This document shows, in pieces, positions 1 to 16,076 of a stretch of 17,291 bases of DNA. Position 1 is the stretch's first letter, and every line of letters begins with the position of its first letter. Position numbers and translations under genes: made by a program. The DNA lies in the IMG/VR virus record IMGVR_UViG_2541047683_000005; one strand, written 5' to 3'. Origin of the DNA: a virus. Its lineage: Duplodnaviria > Heunggongvirae > Uroviricota > Caudoviricetes. The notes under the pieces are model-generated. The model made no database searches, was not told where the DNA came from, and worked only from the letters and a program-made list of their open reading frames with translations.

Positions 1-2757
1 TCAGTTCCCCACCGCCTTTCCAAAATCCGGTGCTCTACGTGGCGCAATAGCACCCGGTTCCCACCAACTCGTTATGTCGAACTCCCGTTGCGCGCGGTCC
101 CTTACTCGATCATTGTAACCAGGGTTTGCCATCTCCTGAAGTTGTTGCAATATCAGGTGATTGGTTATCGCTTTCGCATACCACAGGTTTGCGAATGGAG
201 TGATCATGCGGGCTGTTTTCAGTGCATCGGCACCGAATGATGTTTCTTCACCCTGTAGAGCCTTCTGTGGGTTAGTAATCAGTAATTTTGTTAACTGCTC
301 TGCAAAGCTCAACACAGGGCCACCCATAGTGGCACCGATGCTGGAGCCATATTGCGTATGGTCCTGGAAAATAAAATCACCGTAGATACCGAACGAACCA
401 CCTTTCAGTAGAGCCTGAACCCATGTGGTTGGTTTTGTCATATCCAGCGGGTCATTACCATTTAACAAACTGTTCATCTGGATCGCAAACATACCAGCAA
501 GAGTTGTTCCCCCGATATATGAGGCCAGAAATTTAATGGCCGGAACGGTGTCCAAATCCCGTGTTCTGTTAACAAGTTGCCGAAATCCAGCAAATGGGGT
601 TGTTTTGAAGAGCATGAAGCTCTTCATTAACTCGCCAGCATCATCACGGGCATATGTATCAATACCCGTAGCGGTGGTCACAGCATTGGTCATCTCACCG
701 TGCGTAATTCCCAGCAATTTCTGGGCTGCTTCAGCGCGTGCATTACGAATCATGCGCGTGATGGTCTGCTCAGCCTCAGCGTCGAATGCTTCTTTCATCC
801 GTTTCAGGCGTTCTGGAGGGAGATCTCCAAGGGCTGCCAGTGCCTTTTCACTCCCGGCACGAATCCGGGCAATACGGTCTGCCATAATGTCGGCGATTAC
901 GTTATCGGGCACAGCGTAAATCGCGTCTGGCGTCATCCCCATATGCCCGGCAGTAGTCATCGGCCTGAGTTCTGCCGCTGCCATGATGGCCCAGTCCTCA
1001 TTGCTCCATCCCTTGTTAGCCAGAATGGTTTTATCGGTTCCTTTTATATCGTCCAGCGTCTTAAATTTTCTGGTCAGCTCGCCAATATTTTTGTACATCA
1101 GGAGACCAAACGACGCTTTGTTTGCGCGGTCCATAGCGATCAGCCCGGACCACTTCAGTGTCTTCTCTGCGAACCAGCCAGTTATGCCGCGAGACAAGTC
1201 AAACCCGCCCATTTTCGAAACCACAGCAGCATGTGAATCCACCAGCAGACCGAGTTCAGCATTCGCCTTTTTGGCATCTCCACTAAACAGGTTTTTGATA
1301 GTGTTAACGGAAAGCCGCATTCCACCACGGGTAAAGCCCAGCGCCTGCGCATTTGCCCGCATAATTGCCTGGTCGCTGGTTGCTGTCAGTACGCTGGTGC
1401 CAAGCATGGCGCTGGTCATCAGGTTACGCAGACCACCAACTGCTGAAGAGAACACACTCGATGAAGCGACACCATTTAGGCCAGCCATTGAGTTGAACAT
1501 ACGGGCAACTAATTTGGCCTCATCCTCCATTTCTTTTTTGCGTTTCCCGCCTGTTACTGCGCGCTTATAGATGCGATCCAGTACCAGGGAAAAGTTTCTT
1601 TCGGCGTCCGGACCAAAGGCTTTAACGACGCCCAAATCCCTGGATGATGATTGCAGGTGCGACATCATCACCCCCACCAGCGGCTGCTGAGTGTATCGCT
1701 CCATATAGGCGAAGTGTGACTGCGCATCCTTGAACGCCATCACCCTGTGCTGAGAACCACGGCTCTTTATTCCTCCGGCTCCCATAAATGTACCAGGCTC
1801 AATTTTGTTTGCCCCATCAGTGGCCTTCGTTTCAAAGATCGCTTCCAGTGCCTGACGGTACTCGACGTCATTCATAATGCTGCCGTCAGGATTAACGTAA
1901 TTGCTGCGATCCTGCGTGTTGTAAGCGTCATCAACCCATTTCTGGCGGGCAAACTCAATCGGTGGCTGGCGACCTGAAAGACGTGCTGTAGCTTGCTCTG
2001 CCACTGGTAACGATGCCAGCCATTCTTCGCGCCCGGCATTGCGAATAAGGTCAGCATCATCCACATATGGCGTATGCCAGTCTTCTCGCAGGCCTATGTC
2101 AAAGCCGTTGTCGTTCATCTCATGACGAACACGGCCTGTTACATCCTTCCAAATCTGTGCAATTTTCTTCGCCAGGGGATTACCGGTATCTTCGCCATAA
2201 ATTTCTTTCAGGATCTGGAGTTGTGCAGACTTTGCCGCCTGCCTGTCGAATACACTCCGAAACCGCTGCTCTCCAAGCGCCCTGCTCTGCTCGAAGAATT
2301 TGCGGACGTCATCACCTGCTTTTAGAAGTTCAGCACTGAGCTGACGGGACCAGTCCTGATATGCCCCAATTGCAAGCTCTTCAGCAGAAGTAACGGAGAT
2401 ATCAGCTTTGTCTCTCGATCGTCGGCCAGCAAAAATAAACTGCTGCAAATTAACAGGTGTCTGCTGATCAGGCGGGATGTTAGCATCGAGAGTGTCAGTA
2501 ATTTTACTGATGGCGATCGCATTCTGGGCAACACGCTGTCTTTTCTTGTACACATCATGAACCACACGCTGGCGTACCAGTTCTGCTGCATCCATGTATG
2601 TTTGAGCATCAGGAATACCACTTTTGCCTTCTTTTGCATTCTTTCTGTGCACATGCTGCACAGCTTCTTTGATACGATCTTCAATATTTTTCAGCTCATC
2701 AGCCTTTGGCTGGCGACCAAGTGTCTGCGCAATAGCTTCCACACATGCCTGTTTCAT
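1..2757 (-). CDS. Large hypothetical protein, 918 aa; candidate phage virion-internal/ejection-type protein (function unassigned)
   Basis: Uninterrupted minus-strand ORF ending with TGA at 3..1. The track ORF starts at 2778 but that codon is GTG (plus strand 2776-2778 is cac) with no nearby SD. The ATG at 2757 (MKQACVEAI...) has GAGGAA 6 nt upstream and overlaps the upstream stop as TAATG, so it is the preferred start. Protein is rich in A/G/S/T/N/Q with almost no Cys and has Gly/Ala/Ser-rich hydrophobic stretches (e.g. LAGLNGVASSSVFSSAVGG). No catalytic motif recognised. Confidence 0.65.
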   Translation of the reverse strand: MKQACVEAIAQTLGRQPKADELKNIEDRIKEAVQHVHRKNAKEGKSGIPDAQTYMDAAELVRQRVVHDVYKKRQRVAQNAIAISKITDTLDANIPPDQQTPVNLQQFIFAGRRSRDKADISVTSAEELAIGAYQDWSRQLSAELLKAGDDVRKFFEQSRALGEQRFRSVFDRQAAKSAQLQILKEIYGEDTGNPLAKKIAQIWKDVTGRVRHEMNDNGFDIGLREDWHTPYVDDADLIRNAGREEWLASLPVAEQATARLSGRQPPIEFARQKWVDDAYNTQDRSNYVNPDGSIMNDVEYRQALEAIFETKATDGANKIEPGTFMGAGGIKSRGSQHRVMAFKDAQSHFAYMERYTQQPLVGVMMSHLQSSSRDLGVVKAFGPDAERNFSLVLDRIYKRAVTGGKRKKEMEDEAKLVARMFNSMAGLNGVASSSVFSSAVGGLRNLMTSAMLGTSVLTATSDQAIMRANAQALGFTRGGMRLSVNTIKNLFSGDAKKANAELGLLVDSHAAVVSKMGGFDLSRGITGWFAEKTLKWSGLIAMDRANKASFGLLMYKNIGELTRKFKTLDDIKGTDKTILANKGWSNEDWAIMAAAELRPMTTAGHMGMTPDAIYAVPDNVIADIMADRIARIRAGSEKALAALGDLPPERLKRMKEAFDAEAEQTITRMIRNARAEAAQKLLGITHGEMTNAVTTATGIDTYARDDAGELMKSFMLFKTTPFAGFRQLVNRTRDLDTVPAIKFLASYIGGTTLAGMFAIQMNSLLNGNDPLDMTKPTTWVQALLKGGSFGIYGDFIFQDHTQYGSSIGATMGGPVLSFAEQLTKLLITNPQKALQGEETSFGADALKTARMITPFANLWYAKAITNHLILQQLQEMANPGYNDRVRDRAQREFDITSWWEPGAIAPRRAPDFGKAVGN

Positions 2758-4817
2758 TATGGGTTCCTCAAGAAGCACGCTGCCGCTACAGAATAAACCT
2801 TCGATTCGTTCTGGACTGTCTTAATCTGTTCATCCAGCTCAGCCAGGAGATCAGAAAGTTTTGTCGGGTTTCCGGTTTCCGGGTGAGCTATAGTCAGCTC
2901 AGGATTGGCAACAGCCATGTCCCTGGCAGCCATAAGGTCATAGCTGTTGGATGAGAGAACCTGCCCTGTATCTGGATCAACGCTGACGTCCCCTCTGTGT
3001 TCACCAGCCGATGAGAAAGCACTTTCAGCACGAGGGACAGGCGATTCACTAATTGGCTCTGATGATGTTTCATATCTGACACCATTTTCTTCAAAAACCT
3101 TTTGTATTTCATGGTATTGCTCTTGGTAAGTATCAGATATATCTGATCGCAATGGACCATCAAGCCCTCGCGCCATCCCCCCAACATTTACAGGCTGACC
3201 ATCATTAAGTTGCCTGTATGCTTCATCCATGGCGTCAACATGACTGTTGATGCTCTCATTGCTGGTGTGAAGCACTGGTGACGATTCAATATCGTAATGA
3301 AGCCCCTCATTCAAAATGTGGGCTGCATCAATATCGCTTGGTTTTATTCTTTCCCTCGCCCGGATACCAAAAACTTTTTCTACTGCGGCTTCCAGTTTCA
3401 TATTGCGAAGACGCATACTTACGAGTAACCGTAACTGCTCAGGTGTAACGGTTCCAACCTGAATACCACTGTATCTGAATATATAGGCTTTAAAACCTGA
3501 AATAATTTTTTCCCATGACGAAACGCTTGTCTTTAGAGATGGATTTACTGCATGTGCGGCAACTTCTTCAGCGTATAACCACTCAGGATATGTTTCAGGG
3601 TACTCACCCCTTTTCTTATATTCATAATATTGTGACATCCCATATGCAAATTCAGGATAGTCAGAATGCTTGTTTGCAGATTTAAGTACAGCATTAGCTA
3701 GCTTTCTGGCCTTCCAGTCAGGGTAATGGCGCTGCTCAAGATGAAGCGCCTCATGATGAAGGGTTTCTAACAGTTCTTCATGGTCTTTTAATCCATTAAT
3801 ATTTATTCTTATTATTGGTTCTTTTCCAGAAGCTACTGTCACATGACCTTTATTCAGAAGTATTTCTCCATCACTATTTTTTATTGCTGGTTCATTAATA
3901 AGTTCTATTACTCCTGAATCAGATAAATCACGAACCATTGACTCAATGTTACCATCAGGAGATTGCTGATAATGTTCACCAAAAGTTGATTTTATTTCTT
4001 CTGCAGAAATGTTCGACTCTGTACCATCATGGTTATTATGGGTAGTCAGGTGATGAACGCCACCAAAGACCCCGCCTAAAACGGCATCGACTAACATCGC
4101 CTGACCGTCAAATACCCGGTACTGTTTTGCCATCTCCGTGTAGCCTTTTTCCTCCAGTGTTGCACCGACAGAGTAACGGTTCAGTCCACCGAATCCGGTG
4201 TTGATTGCCACACCTGAGGCAATGCGCGTTGCCAGTGTGGTGCCGACGGCAGCGGGTAAGGCCATACCCACAGCATTGAAAAGGCTCTGCTGCGTTGCCA
4301 GGTTACGCGCCGTAGCCTCATCTACTCCCTTCCCTTTAAAATCCTGATAGGACTGCTCATACGTAGAACCGAAGGCTGTAGCAGCGCCGATGAGTGGGCC
4401 GCCAAACATAGTTGTTCCGATTGCAGGAACAAATTTACCAAGCTCATTTAATACCTCAGCCGCCATTCCCTGGCTGCCTGCATCAGGCTTCACATAGCTG
4501 CGGGCATCCTGTAACTGTTTTCCGATCGTGTCGTATGTATCATTCAGTGTTTTGTCAGCATCAGGGAACATCTCCCGAAAAATATTAACAGTCGGTGCCA
4601 CGTCTGCGGTAAATGCCGGATCGCTAATCAGGCGCTTGCTGAATCCGACGGCAGACTGCGCGAGACCGAGAGCCCCCTCCGCCACGCCGCTCAAAAGTGC
4701 AGTACCTGAACCCTGGAAGGGAGTCGGATCGTAGTCTTCTGGCCTTGCTGGGTTGGCAACTGTTTTGTCGTCAATCCATGCCTGACCTTCTGGAGCCAAA
4801 GAAAAAACATCAGACAT
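2757..4817 (-). CDS. Large hypothetical protein, 686 aa, with glycine-rich hydrophobic segments and an HExxH (HHEALH) zinc-metallopeptidase-like motif
   Basis: ATG at 4817 overlaps the upstream stop as TAATG; GAGGG lies 7 nt upstream. N-terminal third has glycine-zipper-like hydrophobic segments (GKFVPAIGTTMFGGPLIGAATAFG; LVDAVLGGVFGGV). HHEALH is encoded at 3741-3758, inside a visibly AT-richer patch (about 3400-4060). Confidence 0.65.
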   Translation of the reverse strand: MSDVFSLAPEGQAWIDDKTVANPARPEDYDPTPFQGSGTALLSGVAEGALGLAQSAVGFSKRLISDPAFTADVAPTVNIFREMFPDADKTLNDTYDTIGKQLQDARSYVKPDAGSQGMAAEVLNELGKFVPAIGTTMFGGPLIGAATAFGSTYEQSYQDFKGKGVDEATARNLATQQSLFNAVGMALPAAVGTTLATRIASGVAINTGFGGLNRYSVGATLEEKGYTEMAKQYRVFDGQAMLVDAVLGGVFGGVHHLTTHNNHDGTESNISAEEIKSTFGEHYQQSPDGNIESMVRDLSDSGVIELINEPAIKNSDGEILLNKGHVTVASGKEPIIRININGLKDHEELLETLHHEALHLEQRHYPDWKARKLANAVLKSANKHSDYPEFAYGMSQYYEYKKRGEYPETYPEWLYAEEVAAHAVNPSLKTSVSSWEKIISGFKAYIFRYSGIQVGTVTPEQLRLLVSMRLRNMKLEAAVEKVFGIRARERIKPSDIDAAHILNEGLHYDIESSPVLHTSNESINSHVDAMDEAYRQLNDGQPVNVGGMARGLDGPLRSDISDTYQEQYHEIQKVFEENGVRYETSSEPISESPVPRAESAFSSAGEHRGDVSVDPDTGQVLSSNSYDLMAARDMAVANPELTIAHPETGNPTKLSDLLAELDEQIKTVQNESKVYSVAAACFLRNP

Positions 4818-7348
4818 TATTCAACCCTCACGACAATAGCTTTATTGGTTCTGGGATCTGTTGCCCAGCGTCCGCTACCATTTACAAGCCGATACCGGTT
4901 ATTGCCGATATTAACTGGCGTGAAATTTGACACTGCATTTACGTTAAGTCCGGCATCTTTCAGTGCTTGTTTCGCAGATGTGGTATAGCGATCTTTGAAA
5001 GTAGATTTATCCATGCCGAAAGGCATTACAACGTCGCCGCCATTAAAACCATTGTATATACCGCCAGTAGCATACTTCACGGCATCAGCTACAATGTCTG
5101 TATCAGGCATACTGGTTCTTACCGTAGATGCATCACCAGATTGATAAGCTATTCCTGCATAAGCGGCTTTGAAAAGGCTATAACTGATCTGGCGTAACTG
5201 CGGGTTACGGGCAAATGCATTACCTACCTGTTCGTCGAAAGCGTCTTTCATCTTATCTTCGCTCGGCAACTGTACCGGAGTTATGCCCGCATTCTTCATG
5301 GCCTTCGTCGGATTCAGTAGTTGGTCGCCGGAAAGAATAACCTTTGCAACGTCGTACTTGTTCATCGTCGGCTTATACCCGATGAACTGACTATATGGGA
5401 TCGTCGGCTTGGTGTTGTCGTACTGGTTATCCGGCGTGCCCAGCAGCAGCGCAGAATAGGCTGTTGCCGCACTGTTCGGAGCAATTACAGATGCCACCTG
5501 CCGTATTGCTGGCGCAGGCAGCTTCTCCCCCATGCTCTGCAACAGTTTAATTGTCTGGTCAACGTTCTGAGTGCCGCGCACCTGCTGTGCCAGCGCAGCC
5601 GCCTCTTCACTGTTGAGGATTGGGGCATTAATTCCCAACGCGCGTAAGCTTTCCTGCGACGAGAAACGGTTAGCCACCTCGGCAGTGATGTCGTCAGGGT
5701 TGTTGCTGGTGATCGGCTTATAGGCTCCGATTTCCACCGCTGCACTAAACGGATTATTCTGCCTCTGGGTTATTACCTTCGTGGCTGCCGCCGATACCCG
5801 GTCGAATAACTCCGCACGAGACGCATACCCCTCCCCTGTTTCACCAGTATCCGGGCGCAATTGCTCAACATATGCGGTAATGCTGCTTGTCGGCATGTTG
5901 CGGAAAGAGCCTATATACTGTCCGGCGATCTGCAAATTTCTGAACTCGATATATCGCAGGTTTCCTTCTCTGACACCATAAGCTGCAATGAACTCATCCT
6001 CACCAGGTGGGTTAGGAAATTCAACGCCACGCATAAACGCAGCCGTCGCATCGCGAACCCTGCTATCGAGCATCGTTCTATATTCAGCCTGCTGCTGTCT
6101 GGCTAATGCATCCGTCTGTCGCAACACGCTGGCCTGATCTGATTCATTTAAAGCATCGAACCAGGCTACACCGGTATAACGTTTATTTTTTGTCGGTAGC
6201 TGAGAAAGCCCCAGTGCGGCACTAACACCTGCAGTTAACTGCTGATCACTGTATGGCTGGCTACCGTTTTCATGATGGATAATGGCTGCACAAAGCGCCT
6301 TCAGGGTATCAGGATTTGATGCATCGAGAGGCTCATCAGCAGAAACGCCAAGTTGTTCGCACACTGCTTTGATATACGACATAGTGTCATTTTTATCAGT
6401 AGGCGGTGCCCAGCGATTAATTATCTCGCTGACGGTATCAATACCCTGCCGCTGATACGACATCAGGTTCCGCCCTAATGCACGAATACCGTGTTCAGGG
6501 GTTTCGAATTTGGCAAAGCGACCATCATCACCAGTCTGCCCAACCCACGGATTAGTTTTGCTGTATTCAAGATTGCCGGGGTTATTGTTGCGTATACCGC
6601 GGGTACGATCGGAAGAGCCACTATCTGCTACAGCACGGCGAGATCCAGCAGCAGTATCGCTTAACTCGCCGTTTTGCTGTCTTACCTGAAGATAGTTTGC
6701 TCCAATAGCATTTTGAGCAGTTGCTTTTGCTGTTGCTTCTTTAAACTCGATTTTCTTGGCCTGGATTTGCTCGTCGCTCCAGCCATGCGCAATACCGTAA
6801 TCCTCAATTTGCTGGAAAGTTTGCGTATTAGCCAATATGTATGCTGCGTTGTCGCCATATAATGCTGCGGCATTTTTACCATTATTCAGCAGTGTCGCCT
6901 GAAACTGGCCTTCTTCGTAGGCATTTATTTGCCCTATCTCGTACCTCCCGGCCTGCGTAGTGAACTGAATGCGCTGCTGCTGCGCCTGCTGCATGAAAGC
7001 ATTACGAGCCTGTTCATCCGGCAGCGACATAGCCAGTTGTTCGACCTGAGCATCAAACTGCTGTGTATACTCATGGCCTTTTCCAATAGCATTTTTCCCT
7101 TTCAGATTAAGCAATCCTGTTTCAGGATTATTCAGCAGATCACTGCCTGTCTGACTGAGTTTAAGGGATGCCTCCTGAACCAAGGCAATATTGGCGCGCT
7201 GTTTTGCCTGACCAAGAACATCAATTGCCTCTGTCCCTGCCCGAACAAAAGCATCACCAATACCTGGCTGAGAAAACGTCTGCAAGCCTGCTGACTGAAC
7301 TCCACGGCTCTCAACCTGACGTCCGGATACTGTTGGTACGACTGGCAT
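4817..7348 (-). CDS. Large hypothetical protein, 843 aa; candidate phage virion-internal protein (function unassigned)
   Basis: ATG at 7348 with GGGGG 6 nt upstream; stop overlaps the next gene start (TAATG at 4815-4819). Gln/Ala/Asn-rich N-terminus typical of phage structural proteins. Conserved-looking segment RNNNPGNLEYSKTNPWVGQ...RWAPPTDKNDT at about aa 251-330 (nt about 6239-6598). Confidence 0.65.
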   Translation of the reverse strand: MPVVPTVSGRQVESRGVQSAGLQTFSQPGIGDAFVRAGTEAIDVLGQAKQRANIALVQEASLKLSQTGSDLLNNPETGLLNLKGKNAIGKGHEYTQQFDAQVEQLAMSLPDEQARNAFMQQAQQQRIQFTTQAGRYEIGQINAYEEGQFQATLLNNGKNAAALYGDNAAYILANTQTFQQIEDYGIAHGWSDEQIQAKKIEFKEATAKATAQNAIGANYLQVRQQNGELSDTAAGSRRAVADSGSSDRTRGIRNNNPGNLEYSKTNPWVGQTGDDGRFAKFETPEHGIRALGRNLMSYQRQGIDTVSEIINRWAPPTDKNDTMSYIKAVCEQLGVSADEPLDASNPDTLKALCAAIIHHENGSQPYSDQQLTAGVSAALGLSQLPTKNKRYTGVAWFDALNESDQASVLRQTDALARQQQAEYRTMLDSRVRDATAAFMRGVEFPNPPGEDEFIAAYGVREGNLRYIEFRNLQIAGQYIGSFRNMPTSSITAYVEQLRPDTGETGEGYASRAELFDRVSAAATKVITQRQNNPFSAAVEIGAYKPITSNNPDDITAEVANRFSSQESLRALGINAPILNSEEAAALAQQVRGTQNVDQTIKLLQSMGEKLPAPAIRQVASVIAPNSAATAYSALLLGTPDNQYDNTKPTIPYSQFIGYKPTMNKYDVAKVILSGDQLLNPTKAMKNAGITPVQLPSEDKMKDAFDEQVGNAFARNPQLRQISYSLFKAAYAGIAYQSGDASTVRTSMPDTDIVADAVKYATGGIYNGFNGGDVVMPFGMDKSTFKDRYTTSAKQALKDAGLNVNAVSNFTPVNIGNNRYRLVNGSGRWATDPRTNKAIVVRVE

Positions 7349-7651: not shown

Positions 7652-7753
7652 AGCAATTTCCTCTTACTGACTAAACTATGCACATTATCGATCGAAAAAA
7701 GTGGTAGATAAACATATTTCTATCATAAAAACAGATTGATTGAGTTCAGATCC

Positions 7754-7777
7754 AAAAAAAGCCGGATTGCTCCGGCT
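7754..7777 (-). terminator. Rho-independent terminator (minus strand)
   Basis: Plus strand reads aaaaaaa-GCCGGA-ttgc-TCCGGC-t. On the minus-strand RNA this is a 6-7 bp GC-rich stem with a 4-nt loop followed by a U7 tract. It sits about 240 nt downstream of the 138-aa gene and upstream of the 68-aa gene. Confidence 0.7.
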
Positions 7778-8017
7778 CTGTGCTTACTTCTGGTAGTTAC
7801 GCCATACTGATTTCCCGATCCCATCTATCCCCATTTCTTTTTCAGTGCGTTTAAGCGACCGTTTCAGGTCTTCTAAATTATCCGGTTGCTTCGGTGGCCT
7901 CTGTGCCTTCCTGGAACATTCCAGTCGTCGCATTGATATGTAATACCGTTCCTTGTCAGTTCCCCAACTGCATTACTTCACCCCATCGCGCCGCCGCTCT
8001 TCGATACAGGGTTTTAG

Positions 8018-8434
8018 TTAGCCTCCGGCTCTTCCGTAGCGCTGTTCTGGTGGATTCACATAGCCCCTTTCTTGCAGGTATTCGCGAATATCAGACATCA
8101 GGAGACGGTTAACCGTGCTCCTGTCTTTTCTCTGGTAAAGGCGTCTGGTGATCATGAAGTAGTTAGCAATGACCTCCGGTATATCCCTGACGCTGATACA
8201 TGCTGTATGCTGGTCAATAGCTTCAATCATCTCTTCACGAGTTACAAAAGTCTGGCGTAAACGAGTGATCACACCATGTACATCTGAATGATCATTTATA
8301 CGCTTATTTTGGCGCTTCGCGCTCTCGACTGTGACACTGACAACAATGTCAACTCTTTGTTTCTCCGCCATTTCATCCACAATGTGATCACCTGCACGGC
8401 GACCATGTGCGTGATCATTTCTTACTATTTCCAT
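8018..8434 (-). CDS. Hypothetical protein, 138 aa
   Basis: ATG at 8434 with GGAGGAG 6 nt upstream; overlaps the 3' end of the FinO-like gene by 20 nt. No recognisable motif. Last gene before the terminator. Confidence 0.55.
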
Positions 8435-12012: not shown

Positions 12013-12270
12013 TTATTTCCCGGTATGGGGTTCTTCTTTATATTTATGGGCTAACAAATCTGGTAATTGCCTGTATTTATCCTCGGCAATATATTCAGAA
12101 TAATCGACAGCACTGTTCAGTATATCTAACGCCGTTTCATGCTCCAGATTCGAAACTATAAGGAACGTTGCTACTTTTAGCATATTCGCGATATGCAAAA
12201 GAGCATCAATTTCATTTTTTGGCGCTTCGCTGAATTTTTGCTCCAGAAGAATAAATCGTTCATCACGCAT
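12013..12270 (-). CDS. Small hypothetical protein, 85 aa
   Basis: ATG at 12270 with strong SD AGGAGGA 6 nt upstream; overlaps the upstream ORF stop by 8 nt. Acidic, helical-looking protein with no recognised domain. Confidence 0.55.
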   Translation of the reverse strand: MRDERFILLEQKFSEAPKNEIDALLHIANMLKVATFLIVSNLEHETALDILNSAVDYSEYIAEDKYRQLPDLLAHKYKEEPHTGK

Positions 12271-13231
12271 AGTGTTCCTCCTGACGGATGCGGGCAGTAA
12301 ATACCATCACGCAGCCAGCCGGGGATTGCTGACGGGCTTCCTGTTCGCTGGTGGCCTCGATGTGGATTACGCGCGGTTGTGCCGTACTCAGGGCGATAAA
12401 ACGCCAGATAAAATTGTTTTCGCATTTCTGAATAAACAGCGTGTTTTCTTCGCGCCCTTTCCATGTTGCCGAGATATAGCCCATGTCATTGAGCATCTCG
12501 CAGGCATCAACCAGCGTATCAGCGGCTACGTGTACAGTGTTTTTACCGTCAGCTATGCAATCACGGTGCACCGCCAGGAAGGTGTATATAAATTTAGGGT
12601 GAGTTTGGGTATGCTGTGTTCCAGCCATAATCGTTACCTCGTTTAACGGTTTGGTTAGACGCCCTGCATGTGTTGCGAGCACTGCGGGGCGTTGCTCTTT
12701 CAGGTGTATTTCACCTTTGCTTTTTAATTTACTCACTGGTGAAATACACTTCAAGCCTTTTTTTATCATTTTTTTTGCGTATACTGACATACACCAATTT
12801 TTAGGAGATCCAGAAATGGCAACTGGTGCAAAGAACGCAAAATCACAAATGACAACTGTCAGAATCCCACATGAAGTAATGGATGATATTGAGCAACTTA
12901 AAGAACCTGGCGAAAGTACCGCTGGTTTTTTAGTTACTGCCGCAAAAGGCGAGATCAAACGCCGCCAGCGCCGCAAGGCCAAAGAACAGGAATAGCCCAC
13001 CAGCAAGCCAGCACATTCACCATAATGACCCTCGGTTAAAGCTAGGGTCATTACCTCGTCGTTATCCAGAACTGAAACGGCATCAGTAACATTGCTGATT
13101 TCCAGCGCAGCACACACATCAGCGCCAACAAACCACGGCTCGCCGTTGATACTCACTATGCGCACCTGAATGTCATCGAATTTAATGACAGAGATTTCAG
13201 TGCGCCCGGCATAAAAGACAGGTTTACGCAT
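12263..13231 (-). CDS. Bro-N domain protein ORF (322-aa open frame; probably composite, true 3' extent uncertain)
   Basis: ATG at 13231 with GGAGGTGA 6 nt upstream, 2 nt after the antirepressor stop. N-terminal ~70 aa match the Bro-N pattern (INGEPWFVGADVCAALEISN...LDNDE). The middle of the frame is Cys/Ser-rich and looks non-coding: it is antisense to a plus-strand RHH gene and runs through an AT-rich promoter-like region. The last 122 aa have their own SD (GAGGT) and ATG at 12628 and may be a separate gene, 12263..12628. Confidence 0.45.
   Translation of the reverse strand: MRKPVFYAGRTEISVIKFDDIQVRIVSINGEPWFVGADVCAALEISNVTDAVSVLDNDEVMTLALTEGHYGECAGLLVGYSCSLALRRWRRLISPFAAVTKKPAVLSPGSLSCSISSITSCGILTVVICDFAFFAPVAISGSPKNWCMSVYAKKMIKKGLKCISPVSKLKSKGEIHLKEQRPAVLATHAGRLTKPLNEVTIMAGTQHTQTHPKFIYTFLAVHRDCIADGKNTVHVAADTLVDACEMLNDMGYISATWKGREENTLFIQKCENNFIWRFIALSTAQPRVIHIEATSEQEARQQSPAGCVMVFTARIRQEEHYA
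12703..12750. promoter_or_regulatory. Inverted repeat (candidate operator) in the RHH-gene upstream region
   Basis: GGTGTATTTCACC (12703-12715) and GGTGAAATACAC (12738-12749) form a 12/13-bp inverted repeat with a 22-bp spacer, followed by T-runs and a TATACT -10-like hexamer (12780-12785) upstream of the RHH gene SD/ATG. Confidence 0.4.
12816..12995 (+). CDS. Small ribbon-helix-helix (Arc/Mnt/CopG-like) DNA-binding protein, 59 aa
   Basis: ATG at 12816 with SD AGGAGA 7 nt upstream. Protein MATGAKNAKSQMTTVRIPHEVMDDIEQL... has a beta-strand-like TVRIPHEV followed by two helical segments and a basic tail (KRRQRRKAKEQE). Only convincing plus-strand gene; antisense to the long Bro-N frame. Confidence 0.5.
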   Translation: MATGAKNAKSQMTTVRIPHEVMDDIEQLKEPGESTAGFLVTAAKGEIKRRQRRKAKEQE

Positions 13232-13991: not shown

Positions 13992-14682
13992 GTTTCACCC
14001 CCAGAGACGGCGCTGACGTTATCAGGCTGGCGAACGTCTCCATGCGGCGGGCAACCTCCCGCACCGCTTCGGTCGGTGCCATGCCGTTCTGTATCGCTTC
14101 GTGAAATGCTGCCTGCTCGATTTTCTGCATGACCACCAGCAAACCTAACTGCTGATCGCTGGCTGCCTGGCGTTCACCTGTTACCAATCCGGCAAAACGG
14201 TTTTCTGTGCGTGCCAGATTGATGTAGTGGTGACGTTCTGCACCCAGTGCTTTAAGTCCCTCACGGCTTTCGTGATAGCCCGGCAGATATTCGCGGCGTA
14301 CGGGTTCAGCGGCGCGACGCTTTGCAAATGCCTTTGTAACATCCAGCTTGAAGCGGTTCATGCGTTCATCATCACGACCGCGCACAATGCGACACATGTA
14401 ATCAAACTGATCGCTATTCAGGAGGGCAAACTTATGTTCACGCTCCCCGTTTTGACGGGTTTTTAATCGCTCCGTTTGAAACGGAAGGATGCCCAGTTCA
14501 CGCAATCCGGTTTTGTGCTTCTGAATGAGCGAATAAAGGTTTTTGTGCTTTATGCCAATACGCTCAGCAAATAAGCGGGAATCAATGCGCGACTCTGCTT
14601 TGTGGCGAATCAATATATCGCTCTGGCTGGCTTCAGGCTGAACGAAGCCCTGCCCCTGTACGGGCATATATGGACGGTTCAT
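13984..14682 (-). CDS. Putative phage regulatory protein (Rha-like)
   Basis: 232 aa. Segment DSRLFAERIGIKHKNLYSLIQKH...FALLNSDQFDYM resembles the Rha-family pattern (SR-IAE-GK-H-NVLR-I ... Y-L-D). ATG at 14682 with AGGAG 7 nt upstream. Assignment is moderate. Confidence 0.5.
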   Translation of the reverse strand: MNRPYMPVQGQGFVQPEASQSDILIRHKAESRIDSRLFAERIGIKHKNLYSLIQKHKTGLRELGILPFQTERLKTRQNGEREHKFALLNSDQFDYMCRIVRGRDDERMNRFKLDVTKAFAKRRAAEPVRREYLPGYHESREGLKALGAERHHYINLARTENRFAGLVTGERQAASDQQLGLLVVMQKIEQAAFHEAIQNGMAPTEAVREVARRMETFASLITSAPSLGVKHA

Positions 14683-14758
14683 TGAAAACTCCTGCTGTCG
14701 AATTAAGTTACTTTTATTTGCTAGTGGATAGCTTGGGCAATAACCCGTTGCTATTTAA

Positions 14759-14956
14759 TCAAGCAGCCGTTCCGCGTGATTCGGCAATACGCTGATTGAT
14801 CCATTCGTCAATTTCACTTTCAACGAAAGCAATCGCTCGCGAGCCAATTTTAACTGATGCAGGAAATTTACCTTGCCCCATAAGGCGATAAATCCATGCC
14901 TTGCTATATCCAGTTCTACGCTGAACTTCTGTTAAACGAATAAGCGTATTTGACAT
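14759..14956 (-). CDS. alpA: AlpA-family transcriptional regulator (prophage CP4-57-type regulatory protein)
   Basis: 65 aa. MSNTLIRLTEVQRRTGYSKAWIYRLMGQGKFPASVKIGSRAIAFVESEIDEWINQR matches the AlpA helix-turn-helix and the conserved E-IDEW-xQR C-terminus. ATG at 14956 with GAGGT upstream. Confidence 0.9.
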   Translation of the reverse strand: MSNTLIRLTEVQRRTGYSKAWIYRLMGQGKFPASVKIGSRAIAFVESEIDEWINQRIAESRGTAA

Positions 14957-15026
14957 CTATTTACCTCATAACGTCTACTCAATTTGACGAGGTAATCATG
15001 GCACAGAAATAACGAATATTTTCATA

Positions 15027-15135
15027 CCCTCAGGCCTAATGGTTACCGGAAGGAAATTAACCCTAAGGGTGATGGTAAAATTGACGGAGAAGATAAAAAA
15101 ACACCCTCAGGGTAACAGTAAATCACCCTCAGGGT
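15027..15135. promoter_or_regulatory. Array of helically phased palindromic sites (ACCCTnAGGGT) upstream of alpA
   Basis: Palindromes ACCCTAAGGGT (15060-15070), ACCCTCAGGGT (15103-15113) and ACCCTCAGGGT (15125-15135), plus a half-site-like ACCCTCAGG (15027-15035). Start-to-start spacing is 33, 43 and 22 bp, roughly multiples of one helical turn. Lies in the 194-bp intergenic region between the 265-aa gene stop and the alpA start. Confidence 0.6.
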
Positions 15136-15150
15136 ATGCGGTATGGTGCG

Positions 15151-15948
15151 TTAATCCGGCTTTGCGTTCTTTTGGCTGTTGTCTCGGTTAATAGGGCAGG
15201 CAGTCCTCTCTATGAGCGTTGCAAGAGCATTACTTGCCCCCCACTGCTTAAGCTCCCTGGTTATCGCTTCTTGATTTCCCCTGGTGGCAAAATCATTTTC
15301 TGGATCGTAATTGGCCCACTCTCTGTTTCTAATCTCAATAGCCTTAGCTAATGGGTCTTTATCCCAGTATTTATATAAGTGTATCGGGCGCTCTTGCTCT
15401 AACTGCTCTATCCTTGCCCTTAACTCTGCGTTTTCTTTTTCCAGCCTTGCGATTTGGGATAATAAATCATCCTCTGTACGCAACTCTTTCTTTTCAATAT
15501 CGCGTCCTTGTGCCTCGTCATTTTCAGAAGAGTTAGCGCCTTCCAGCTTCGTTAACGCGTCAAGGACATCGGGAAAAATTGCGAAAATTTCACCCCTTAT
15601 AAATCCAATGTTCTCAAATTCGGGATCTTCCCAATAACCGGACACCAGAAAACCATTTTCATCCCTCTCACCAGGTAAACAACCACGTTTCCGAACCGCA
15701 TTCAGATTTCTATAAAGAACATCATAATCAAATTCATCCCGATACGGGTTACAAAAAGATTCCAACAGCTTAAATTCATTTACTGTGTACAGGCGGATAT
15801 GTTCTCCGCTTATTCTCCTGAGTATCCAAGTTATGACATCTGAAACATCATAATCATCACCAGCGACCTTAAGCACGACCTCAAGAAATTCACGTAAAGA
15901 AATAAAATCTTTTTTGTATTCGTTTAATTCGGCATGAATATCAATCAT
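15151..15948 (-). CDS. Hypothetical protein, 265 aa, with central coiled-coil segment; AT-rich orphan gene between int and alpA
   Basis: The track ORF starts at 15954 but that codon is GTG directly abutting GAGGT. The ATG at 15948 has GAGGT 6 nt upstream and is the preferred start. Contains a heptad-like segment LLSQIARLEKENAELRARIEQLEQE. The gene is visibly more AT-rich than its neighbours. No enzymatic motif recognised. Confidence 0.6.
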   Translation of the reverse strand: MIDIHAELNEYKKDFISLREFLEVVLKVAGDDYDVSDVITWILRRISGEHIRLYTVNEFKLLESFCNPYRDEFDYDVLYRNLNAVRKRGCLPGERDENGFLVSGYWEDPEFENIGFIRGEIFAIFPDVLDALTKLEGANSSENDEAQGRDIEKKELRTEDDLLSQIARLEKENAELRARIEQLEQERPIHLYKYWDKDPLAKAIEIRNREWANYDPENDFATRGNQEAITRELKQWGASNALATLIERTACPINRDNSQKNAKPD

Positions 15949-16076
15949 ACGCACACCTCAGCGTCCTCTACTGTAGTGGCTGTACCAGTCCGTCGAGGTG
16001 TACGGATTTTCGGGAGCGATCCTAGACACAGCCTTTTCTTTCGTCGCTCAAAGTCTACTACTGTATACGCAACCAG

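Follow-up and report, generated by a model that had tools for sequence, protein, structure and literature searches.

What does a zinc-metallopeptidase-like motif do in the middle of a phage structural protein? This question is raised by a 17,291-nucleotide (nt) stretch of Caudoviricetes DNA, IMG/VR virus record IMGVR_UViG_2541047683_000005, which was analyzed at its full length and is referred to here as the window. A minus-strand gene of the window for a protein of 686 amino acids (aa) contains the codons for HHEALH within an AT-rich patch. A first-pass annotation made from the sequence had proposed that this patch is a horizontally acquired or swapped domain in a structural-type protein and that, if the protein were virion-internal, an injected zinc protease could act on host targets. 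We found that the patch is a cassette swapped into an orthologue of gp16 of Salmonella phage epsilon15, and that it encodes a homologue of an HExxH domain of giant polyvalent phage proteins. Zincin-like metallopeptidase (MPTase) domains of this kind, and internal virion proteins (IVPs) that carry passenger domains, were already known (PMC5512222, PMC4819975). New are the very divergent member of the domain family, its minimal architecture in an epsilon15-type gp16, and its exclusive tie to an element that has no capsid genes.

The AT-rich cassette and its HExxH domain

Read on the plus strand, the 686-aa gene gave only stops; the gene lies on the minus strand, and no open reading frame (ORF) of at least 60 aa was present on the opposite strand across positions 3188–4527. 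The HHEALH codons were at the annotated positions 3741–3758 when read on the minus strand, with H355-E356-A357-L358-H359 (nt 3755–3741) as the strict HExxH motif. The window represents an element of the Escherichia coli chromosome, and the gene was 100% identical to the copy in strain E1. Together with the adjacent minus-strand ORFs of 843 and 918 aa, it forms a set of three orthologues of epsilon15 gp15, gp16, and gp17. In tblastn searches against the phages epsilon15, BUCT554, and ST11-OXA245phi3.2, approximately 65% of the 686-aa protein was covered, in two pieces with 80–84% identity. Both the conserved N- and C-modules and the gp15-gp16-gp17 synteny, which characterize gp16-type proteins, were found. 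The two modules share ~80–90% protein identity with epsilon15 gp16 and its orthologues (phrog_1145) in the Uetakevirus-type podophages, where the gene likewise lies between gp15 and gp17. The epsilon15 proteins gp13 to gp17 make up the set of internal virion (ejection) proteins known from podoviruses: Hardies et al. assigned gp13 as IVP-A, gp14 as IVP-B, and gp17 as IVP-D, and gp15 and gp16 were implicated as IVP-C homologues (PMC4819975). The probable presence of epsilon15-type gp16 in the virion and its ejection are suggested by orthology, by the same work, and by a passage of PMC12391199 that cites Guichard 2013, and IVPs that carry domains destined for the cytoplasm are known (PMC4819975). 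The virion-internal nature of the host protein, on which the first-pass annotation had made its functional proposal depend, is thus in line with the literature on IVP-C-like ejection proteins.

The compositional shift that had been noticed in the 686-aa gene is real, and the most extreme composition of the window lies in the patch. The cassette (aa 258–490, nt 3348–4046) had a GC content of 0.382 and a GC content at third codon positions (GC3) of 0.258, compared to 0.534 (GC3 0.514) in the N-module, 0.471 (GC3 0.413) in the C-module, and 0.494 in the whole window. As few as 55 of 16,593 sliding 699-nt segments were as low in GC as the cassette, with the minimum at position 3341, and the lowest value among the non-overlapping segments outside the patch (n = 22) was 0.425. 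On a 500-nt scale, the lowest GC of the window (0.364) was located at 3501–4000. In blastn comparisons with three complete epsilon15-type genomes, DNA homology was unbroken from the start of gp15 to position 4047/4048, and it returned at 3347/3348 and continued to the end of gp17 with 72–79% identity. These sharp breakpoints therefore bracket exactly the AT-rich 699 bp, and the patch limits given in the first-pass annotation (3400–4060) were ~50 nt or less away from them.

In an alignment of the gp16 proteins (A1), aa 1–257 and 491–686 were nearly invariant, and the center of the window copy was non-homologous to epsilon15 and ST11-OXA245phi3.2 and nearly absent in BUCT554. A survey of the centers of seven gp16 orthologues, with GC measured for five, revealed two types. 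The first consists of a Pro/Ala/Glu-rich linker of 68–76 aa (BUCT554 and prophages of Erwinia dacicola and Pseudocitrobacter), and the second of a Pro/Ala/Glu linker plus a helical segment of ~110 aa, with 181–183 aa in total. The gp16 of Scandinavium, grouped with the first type, has the same length of 529 aa, and its center could not be delimited. While the epsilon15 gp16 orthologues thus contain a linker or helical segment of 68–183 aa, the window copy has 233 aa with the HExxH domain. The GC content of the orthologue centers equaled that of their own flanks in all five measured cases. These comparisons indicate that a horizontally acquired 699-bp cassette replaced the variable linker between the N- and C-modules of gp16. 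The proposal of a foreign domain swapped into this gene is in agreement with the base-sharp breakpoints, the GC drop, and the different or nearly missing centers of the orthologues, whose comparison had been suggested as a check and revealed a variable center between conserved flanks.

The first 20 residues of the cassette (aa 258–277, nt 3987–4046; TESNISAEEIKS) retain a residual likeness to the epsilon15-type linker (DSEAPIPAAEVQS): E267, I270, A272, E274, and S277 were invariant in the gp16 alignment despite the lowered GC and the ended blastn homology. This hints that the donor may have been a homologue of gp16 in a lineage with AT-rich DNA and not a polyvalent protein. Neither the donor nor a closer relative of the cassette was found in scans of viral contigs and metagenomes; the consensus motifs of the metagenome scan could not retrieve sequences of the window type.

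Direct searches retrieved little. The cassette had no match among 5.8 billion proteins in a k-mer-seeded search, the single match of an exhaustive phmmer search (1.8 billion representatives) was a 74-aa fragment of the 686-aa protein itself, and tblastn of the cassette against plasmids yielded no match. No family matched the 686-aa protein in Pfam at an expect value (E) ≤ 0.01, and searches of Pfam, NCBIfam, and PADLOC with the protein, the cassette, and the members of its domain family likewise identified no curated family. In tblastn against phage genomes, however, the last 70 residues of the cassette weakly matched (E ~2e-3) giant proteins annotated as “DarB-like antirestriction / PLxRFG” from podophages of Ralstonia, Klebsiella, Serratia, and Ochrobactrum. 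The translated regions of these proteins contained a colinear domain with an HExxH motif located ~60 residues before a pair of glutamates (EE pair) and ~105 residues before a GxVTPxQLRALA block. When the cassette was compared by hhalign with a profile built from the polyvalent proteins only, the domains aligned over 162 columns (probability 97.2%, E 4.2e-11), with HExxH on HExxH and EE on EE. A scan of viral contigs added ~30 non-redundant members, every one of them in phage contigs of ~60 kb; two further profile-based homologue searches recovered just 7–9 fragmentary polyvalent proteins.

In the resulting family alignment (A4, n = 27), the residues H355, E356, H359, W368, E417, E418, K443, G451, Q453, G455, T458, P459, Q461, L462, and R463 were invariant, and the window copy keeps all of them. 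It is the most divergent member, with 19–26% identity and an 18-aa insertion before the HExxH helix. The distance between HExxH and the EE pair is 62 aa in the window (58–66 in the family), and that between HExxH and VTPxxLR 102 aa (101–109 in the family). The motif order, LxDxG, PDGxI, HExxH, W, EExxAxA, and K...GxQxGxVTPxQLR, is shared with the polyvalent domains of Ralstonia phages GP4, Gervaise, and Cimandef, Klebsiella phage vB_KpnP_ZX1, Serratia phage Parlo, and Ochrobactrum phage POI1126. A third zinc ligand, the presence of which had been proposed as a check, thus has a family-wide candidate in E417/E418. The assignments to known peptidases that had been suggested fared less well: membership in the SprT, Wss1, or ImmA/IrrE (M78) families was unsupported, as was membership in M48, M1, or any polyvalent MPTase model, with no curated Pfam model above threshold. 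A metzincin reading (HExxHxxGxxH with a third His ligand and a Met-turn) was also rejected, as HEALHLEQRH has no Gly at +3, and the extra His at +5 is unconserved in the family (HE.FHSG). Judged by these searches, the HExxH family of polyvalent proteins appears to be uncurated.

The carriers of the related domains differ strongly from the 686-aa protein. In the proteins of Klebsiella phage ZX1 (3,867 aa) and Ochrobactrum phage POI1126 (4,841 aa), the HExxH domain is the only peptidase-like module and lies just before LPD39, after methyltransferase/GNAT or LPD3 modules; SNF2 helicase-type and other cytoplasm-type modules are also present. The N-termini of the carrier proteins contain SLT, Hydrolase_2, or M15 cell-wall hydrolases, a signature that marks them as virion-delivered (injected) proteins. 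In these relatives, which have 3,200–4,800 aa and stem from GC-rich phages, the domain is one of many modules, whereas in the window it is encoded by AT-rich DNA, is the sole passenger in an IVP-C-like protein, and is not followed by LPD39.

Iyer et al. (2017) described zincin-like MPTases as the commonest domain of polyvalent proteins, with 12 clades, a layout in which an HExxH-containing helix is followed, after variable inserts, by a helix with a Glu ligand, and aa 2130–2448 of the virion RNA polymerase (vRNAP) of phage N4 as the archetype (PMC5512222). At the sequence level, the cassette has this layout of an HExxH helix and a conserved Glu in a later helix, and the polyvalent HExxH domain presumably represents one of these clades. 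Full-length structures of N4 vRNAP exist (9pnr, 9pnq, 11gp, and others), in which C1, a subdomain (residues 2124–2375) of the C-terminal domain (CTD) of N4 vRNAP gp50, contains a conserved zincin-type HExxH (PMC13434306). Aligned with the N4 segment alone, the family profile A4 was colinear (59%, E 9e-5), and the value rose to 88.7% (E 2.6e-6, 122 columns) with a profile from eight diverse Schitoviridae (A7). The HExxH helix of C1, a preceding “GWT..D.TIYLV” strand region, a distal Glu (ALNEF), and a later amphipathic helix aligned with the family profile. Like the cassette, C1 is part of an ejected internal virion protein (an IVP-D homologue), whereas it has one Glu of the EE pair, no GxVTPxQLR block, and is fused to a polymerase and to the 110-kDa C2. 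A putative counterpart lies at residues 417–560 of chain G of PDB entry 9sfn, a 1,337-aa “Internal virion protein”. The N4-like vRNAPs (ALNEF) and 9sfn_G (VKEL) retain the second Glu of the EE pair only; E418 is therefore the likely third ligand. No Pfam peptidase family matched the N4 MPTase region, and a scan of viral contigs with this region retrieved N4 alone.

Two side observations concern the distribution of this domain. At least four podovirus lineages have internal virion proteins that contain it (ZX1, aa ~2715–2930; POI1126, aa ~3700–3910; N4 gp50, aa 2124–2375; 9sfn_G, 417–560). Moreover, the N4 region and all 27 members of the family alignment lack a Pfam match, making them a candidate for a new curated family.

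Conservation of the cassette and its carrier element

Selection on the cassette was assessed by comparing the window with seven other intact copies, which came from IMG/VR contigs and from two E. coli genomes. All eight polymorphic codons of the cassette differed synonymously (~78% nonsynonymous changes expected by chance, P ~5e-6), and HExxH and the EE pair were intact in 8/8 intact copies. The cassette is thus under purifying selection. One IMG/VR contig (IMGVR_UViG_3300022775_000039) contained two indels that frameshift aa ~308–403 of the cassette. It was initially a candidate for a divergent copy and was rejected as a frameshifted metagenome assembly; the frameshift most likely reflects faulty assembly of A-rich runs and not a natural pseudogene.

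Among 5,426 complete E. coli genomes, 37 contained the cassette DNA, always as a single copy and always in this gene, and it was ≥99% identical in 36 of the 37. A more distant gp16 N-module occurred in 17 other E. coli genomes, two of which were inspected and found to harbor complete epsilon15-like prophages with a standard gp16 of 634–636 aa that lacks the cassette. None of the 5,426 genomes contained both the cassette-bearing element and a detectable complete epsilon15-like prophage, which is uninformative given an expected number of ~0.1. A scan of genome contigs with the N-module identified three loci.

The carrier of the cassette is not an ordinary phage. It is an element of ~19 kb that had the same gene set in the three genomes inspected: an integrase; helix-turn-helix, Rha, AntA, and BRO regulators; an Icd-like protein; DUF4222; a DUF927 primase; SSB; ProQ/FinO; PerC; the gp15/16/17-like proteins; and a small ORF. 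Genes for capsid, portal, terminase, tail, or lysis proteins were absent from the element in all three genomes. It occupied two chromosomal sites, tRNA-Gly and yicC–dinD, each with a different integrase. The element thus combines the features expected of a P4-like or PICI-like satellite, namely an integrase, its own replication module, more than one attachment site, and the lack of capsid, terminase, tail, and lysis genes. Its appearance is that of a phage satellite equipped with ejection proteins of its own, and literature searches found no description of such a satellite. The cassette is specific to this mobile, satellite-like element, on which the gp16 gene sits unlike the epsilon15-type gp16 genes.

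Predicted activity and alternative explanations

The explanation that best accounts for the data as a whole, and to which we give an even chance of being correct, is that a swapped-in zincin-like domain is ejected together with the DNA and, in the recipient cell, functions as a zinc-dependent peptidase. According to this model, the cassette would encode one zincin-like domain with HExxH in one helix and, ~60 residues further on, a Glu ligand in a second helix; H355, H359, and E418 are the predicted ligands, and E356 is the predicted general base. The 686-aa protein would enter particles as its gp16 orthologues do and leave them together with the DNA, the domain would reach the recipient cell as a zinc-dependent peptidase, and there it would act in trans at entry on host proteins or on proteins of a competitor or helper. 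We favor such a trans-acting effector, with a confidence close to or slightly under the midpoint, over roles in self-processing, as a scaffold or adaptor, or at the envelope, because the domain is the sole passenger here and the cassette-less orthologues work with a plain linker.

Several results weigh against this interpretation. The zincin fold, the zinc site, and peptidase catalysis are predictions from sequence comparison, and neither zinc binding nor proteolysis by members of this clade is reported in PMC5512222, PMC13434306, or PMC13492108. No curated peptidase family was recovered: in Pfam, the sole match of the cassette at E ≤ 10 was FapA_N (0.14), and the 27 family members gave only sub-threshold matches around the motif (WLM 0.095, DUF6782 0.013, M1 0.14). 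Sequence searches of the PDB with the protein and with the profiles A2 and A4 retrieved no solved zincin, the only faint match being proabylysin with an E of 0.88. The link from the window to N4 C1 appears to be transitive only, as the window copy alone had no significant similarity to the N4-like profile, and the match of the family to the 9sfn_G fragment was not significant either. Structure prediction gave no confirmation, with a pLDDT of 48.8 for AlphaFold on the single sequence and a pLDDT of 51.7 and pTM of 0.42 with a multiple sequence alignment of ten sequences, and a Foldseek search of the PDB with the low-confidence model produced only noise and no match at E ≤ 0.001. The order of secondary structure elements in this model, a helix (12–21), short strands, the long HExxH helix (67–85), a helical insert, and the EE helix (133–144), fits a zincin core. 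Finally, packaging and ejection of the 686-aa protein are predicted from orthology, and the element that encodes it has no capsid genes.

That the motif arose by chance in a neutral, fast-evolving AT-rich linker is effectively excluded. On its own, the HExxH motif is weak evidence, as it arises in 4–5% of shuffles of the 686-aa protein or of the cassette. A chance origin would also match the variable linker at the gp16 center of other phages and the lack of a homologue in the k-mer and phmmer searches. The motif is meaningful because it is invariant in a homologous domain family; the cassette has profile homology to this conserved domain with every invariant residue retained, none of its eight polymorphic codons is nonsynonymous, and regular secondary structure was predicted throughout, albeit in the low-confidence model. 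Autoprocessing, which we regard as unlikely, would mean that the domain cuts its own carrier between the gp16 N- and C-modules, or neighboring internal virion proteins, in the capsid or after ejection. Here no other passenger domain could be released, the N- and C-modules of the orthologues stay linked, by as little as 68 aa, and N4 vRNAP with the related C1 is packaged unprocessed and in full length (PMC5512222, PMC13492108). On the other hand, Iyer et al. (2017) favor the processing of multidomain polypeptides by MPTases, citing P1 DdrB (PMC5512222), the domain is the only peptidase-like module amid many effector domains in the ZX1 and POI1126 proteins, and in the 686-aa protein it is placed exactly at the junction of two modules.

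A non-catalytic function as a metal-stabilized scaffold for assembly, encapsidation, or contact with the core or portal of a partner is of similarly low probability. For example, such a module might allow the gp16 of the capsid-less element to compete with, or fit into, the particles of a helper, which would agree with the exclusive occurrence of the cassette on this element. The recurrence of the domain specifically in internal virion proteins (N4, 9sfn_G, and the giant IVPs) points in the same direction, as do the N4 C-terminal region with C1, which is required for encapsidation (PMC5512222), and the location of C1 in a CTD by which the polymerase is bound and autoinhibited; no activity or protease function of C1 is reported in PMC13434306. 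However, lineages with only ~20–25% identity share both the predicted general base, the Glu of HExxH, and the distal Glu without exception, beyond what a scaffold usually demands, and gp16 proteins without the cassette still assemble. A peptidase that acts on the envelope, in the periplasm or membrane during channel formation, and cuts peptidoglycan stem peptides, Lpp, or porins appears very unlikely. The domain has no similarity to models of M15, M23, or other cell-wall peptidases, and in the giant proteins it lies thousands of residues away from the N-terminal cell-wall hydrolases, amid methyltransferase, GNAT, SNF2 helicase, LPD3, and LPD39 modules. An envelope function would match the frequent swapping of muralytic domains among ejection proteins (PMC8954989), the transglycosylase-type region in the gp15-like neighbor, and the mildly hydrophobic, Gly/Ala-rich segments of the gp16 N-module.

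In concept, the favored trans-acting effector would resemble the injected anti-defense proteins T4 Ip1-3 and P1 DarB/DdrB, which are also packaged in the head, injected with the DNA, and active at entry (PMC12373910, PMC5512222). In contrast to the predicted peptidase, these proteins are stoichiometric inhibitors or a methylase/helicase and not HExxH peptidases. A more specific version, which we consider quite unlikely, is that the carrier is an undescribed capsid-less satellite with its own gp15/16/17-like trio, whose middle protein is armed with an injected zincin-type protease as an “entry weapon”. At entry, this protease would cut a host defense protein or a protein of the helper or a competitor, such as a repressor or the ejection proteins of the helper. 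A satellite supplying its own ejection proteins would, if real, widen the range of strategies known for phage satellites, and the entry weapon would for the first time offer a tractable way to learn the role of the HExxH domains in N4 vRNAP and in the giant polyvalent proteins. The zincin-like HExxH domain is the commonest domain of virion-delivered polyvalent proteins, and the structure of N4 vRNAP was solved in 2025–26. While the known carriers are proteins of 3,000–5,000 residues from phages that are difficult to manipulate, the cassette is a cleanly bounded insert in a much smaller E. coli protein, and natural cassette-less controls exist in epsilon15, BUCT554, and the complete E. coli prophages. 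In this small, naturally controlled E. coli system, the protease nature and the targets of the domain are directly testable.

Feature coordinates and further observations

The positions of the gene, its modules, the cassette with its motifs, and the neighboring features are listed in Table 1. The HExxH motif was absent from the gp15-like and gp17-like neighbor proteins.

Table 1 Features of the window, with positions counted from its first letter.
Feature	Position	Strand	Basis
686-aa gene (gp16 orthologue)	2757..4817	-	ORF listing; two-piece tblastn; gp15-gp17 synteny; phrog_1145 match in 2 stretches
N-module of gp16, aa 1-257, Gly/Ala-rich, mildly hydrophobic	4047..4817	-	near-invariant in alignment A1; hydropathy
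AT-rich replacement cassette, aa 258-490, 699 bp	3348..4046	-	GC/GC3; blastn breakpoints; orthologue centers; synonymous codons
Core HExxH...EE...GxVTPxQLR domain, aa ~288-474	3396..3956	-	hhalign vs polyvalent profile; 27-sequence alignment A4; A4 vs N4-like profile
HHEALH, aa 354-359	3741..3758	-	H355, E356, H359 = predicted zinc ligands and catalytic base; invariant H76/E77/H80 in A4
E417-E418; E418 = predicted third zinc ligand	3564..3569	-	both Glu invariant in A4
C-terminal block K443...G451-x-Q453-x-G455-x-x-T458-P459-x-Q461-L462-R463	3429..3491	-	invariant A4 columns; seeded first tblastn matches
C-module of gp16, aa 491-686	2760..3347	-	conserved in alignment A1; DNA homology resumes 3347/3348
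gp15-like internal virion protein, 843 aa, upstream partner	4817..7348	-	phrog_992, phrog_1044, phrog_7182; epsilon15 gp15 annotation; transglycosylase-type region
gp17-like (IVP-D) internal virion protein, 918 aa, downstream partner	1..2757	-	phrog_684; epsilon15 gp17 = IVP-D (PMC4819975)
int-alpA RNA motif RF02996	15965-16032	-	41.4 bits vs gathering score 35.8; between integrase gene and next ORF

Some further observations were made outside the gp15/16/17-like genes. A second AT-rich stretch (GC 0.42–0.44) was located at 14500–16000 and includes an ORF of 267 aa (15151–15954), which had faint coiled-coil/bZIP-like matches and no family in PADLOC, NCBIfam, or Pfam. At 12263–13231, the window contains a continuous minus-strand ORF of 322 aa whose N-terminus matches Bro-N and whose C-terminus matches a repressor-like PHROG. 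The annotations of this region disagree: in the RefSeq record of strain E1, it is split into an Icd-like protein and a partial “transporter” pseudogene, and a YlcI gene is placed on the opposite strand. The regulator of the PerC family (7652–8018), which lies upstream of the ejection protein genes, was annotated as frameshifted in all three inspected genomes and is either a conserved pseudogene or the result of a programmed or unrecognized frame. The int-alpA RNA motif next to the integrase gene is typical of integrase/AlpA-type islands.

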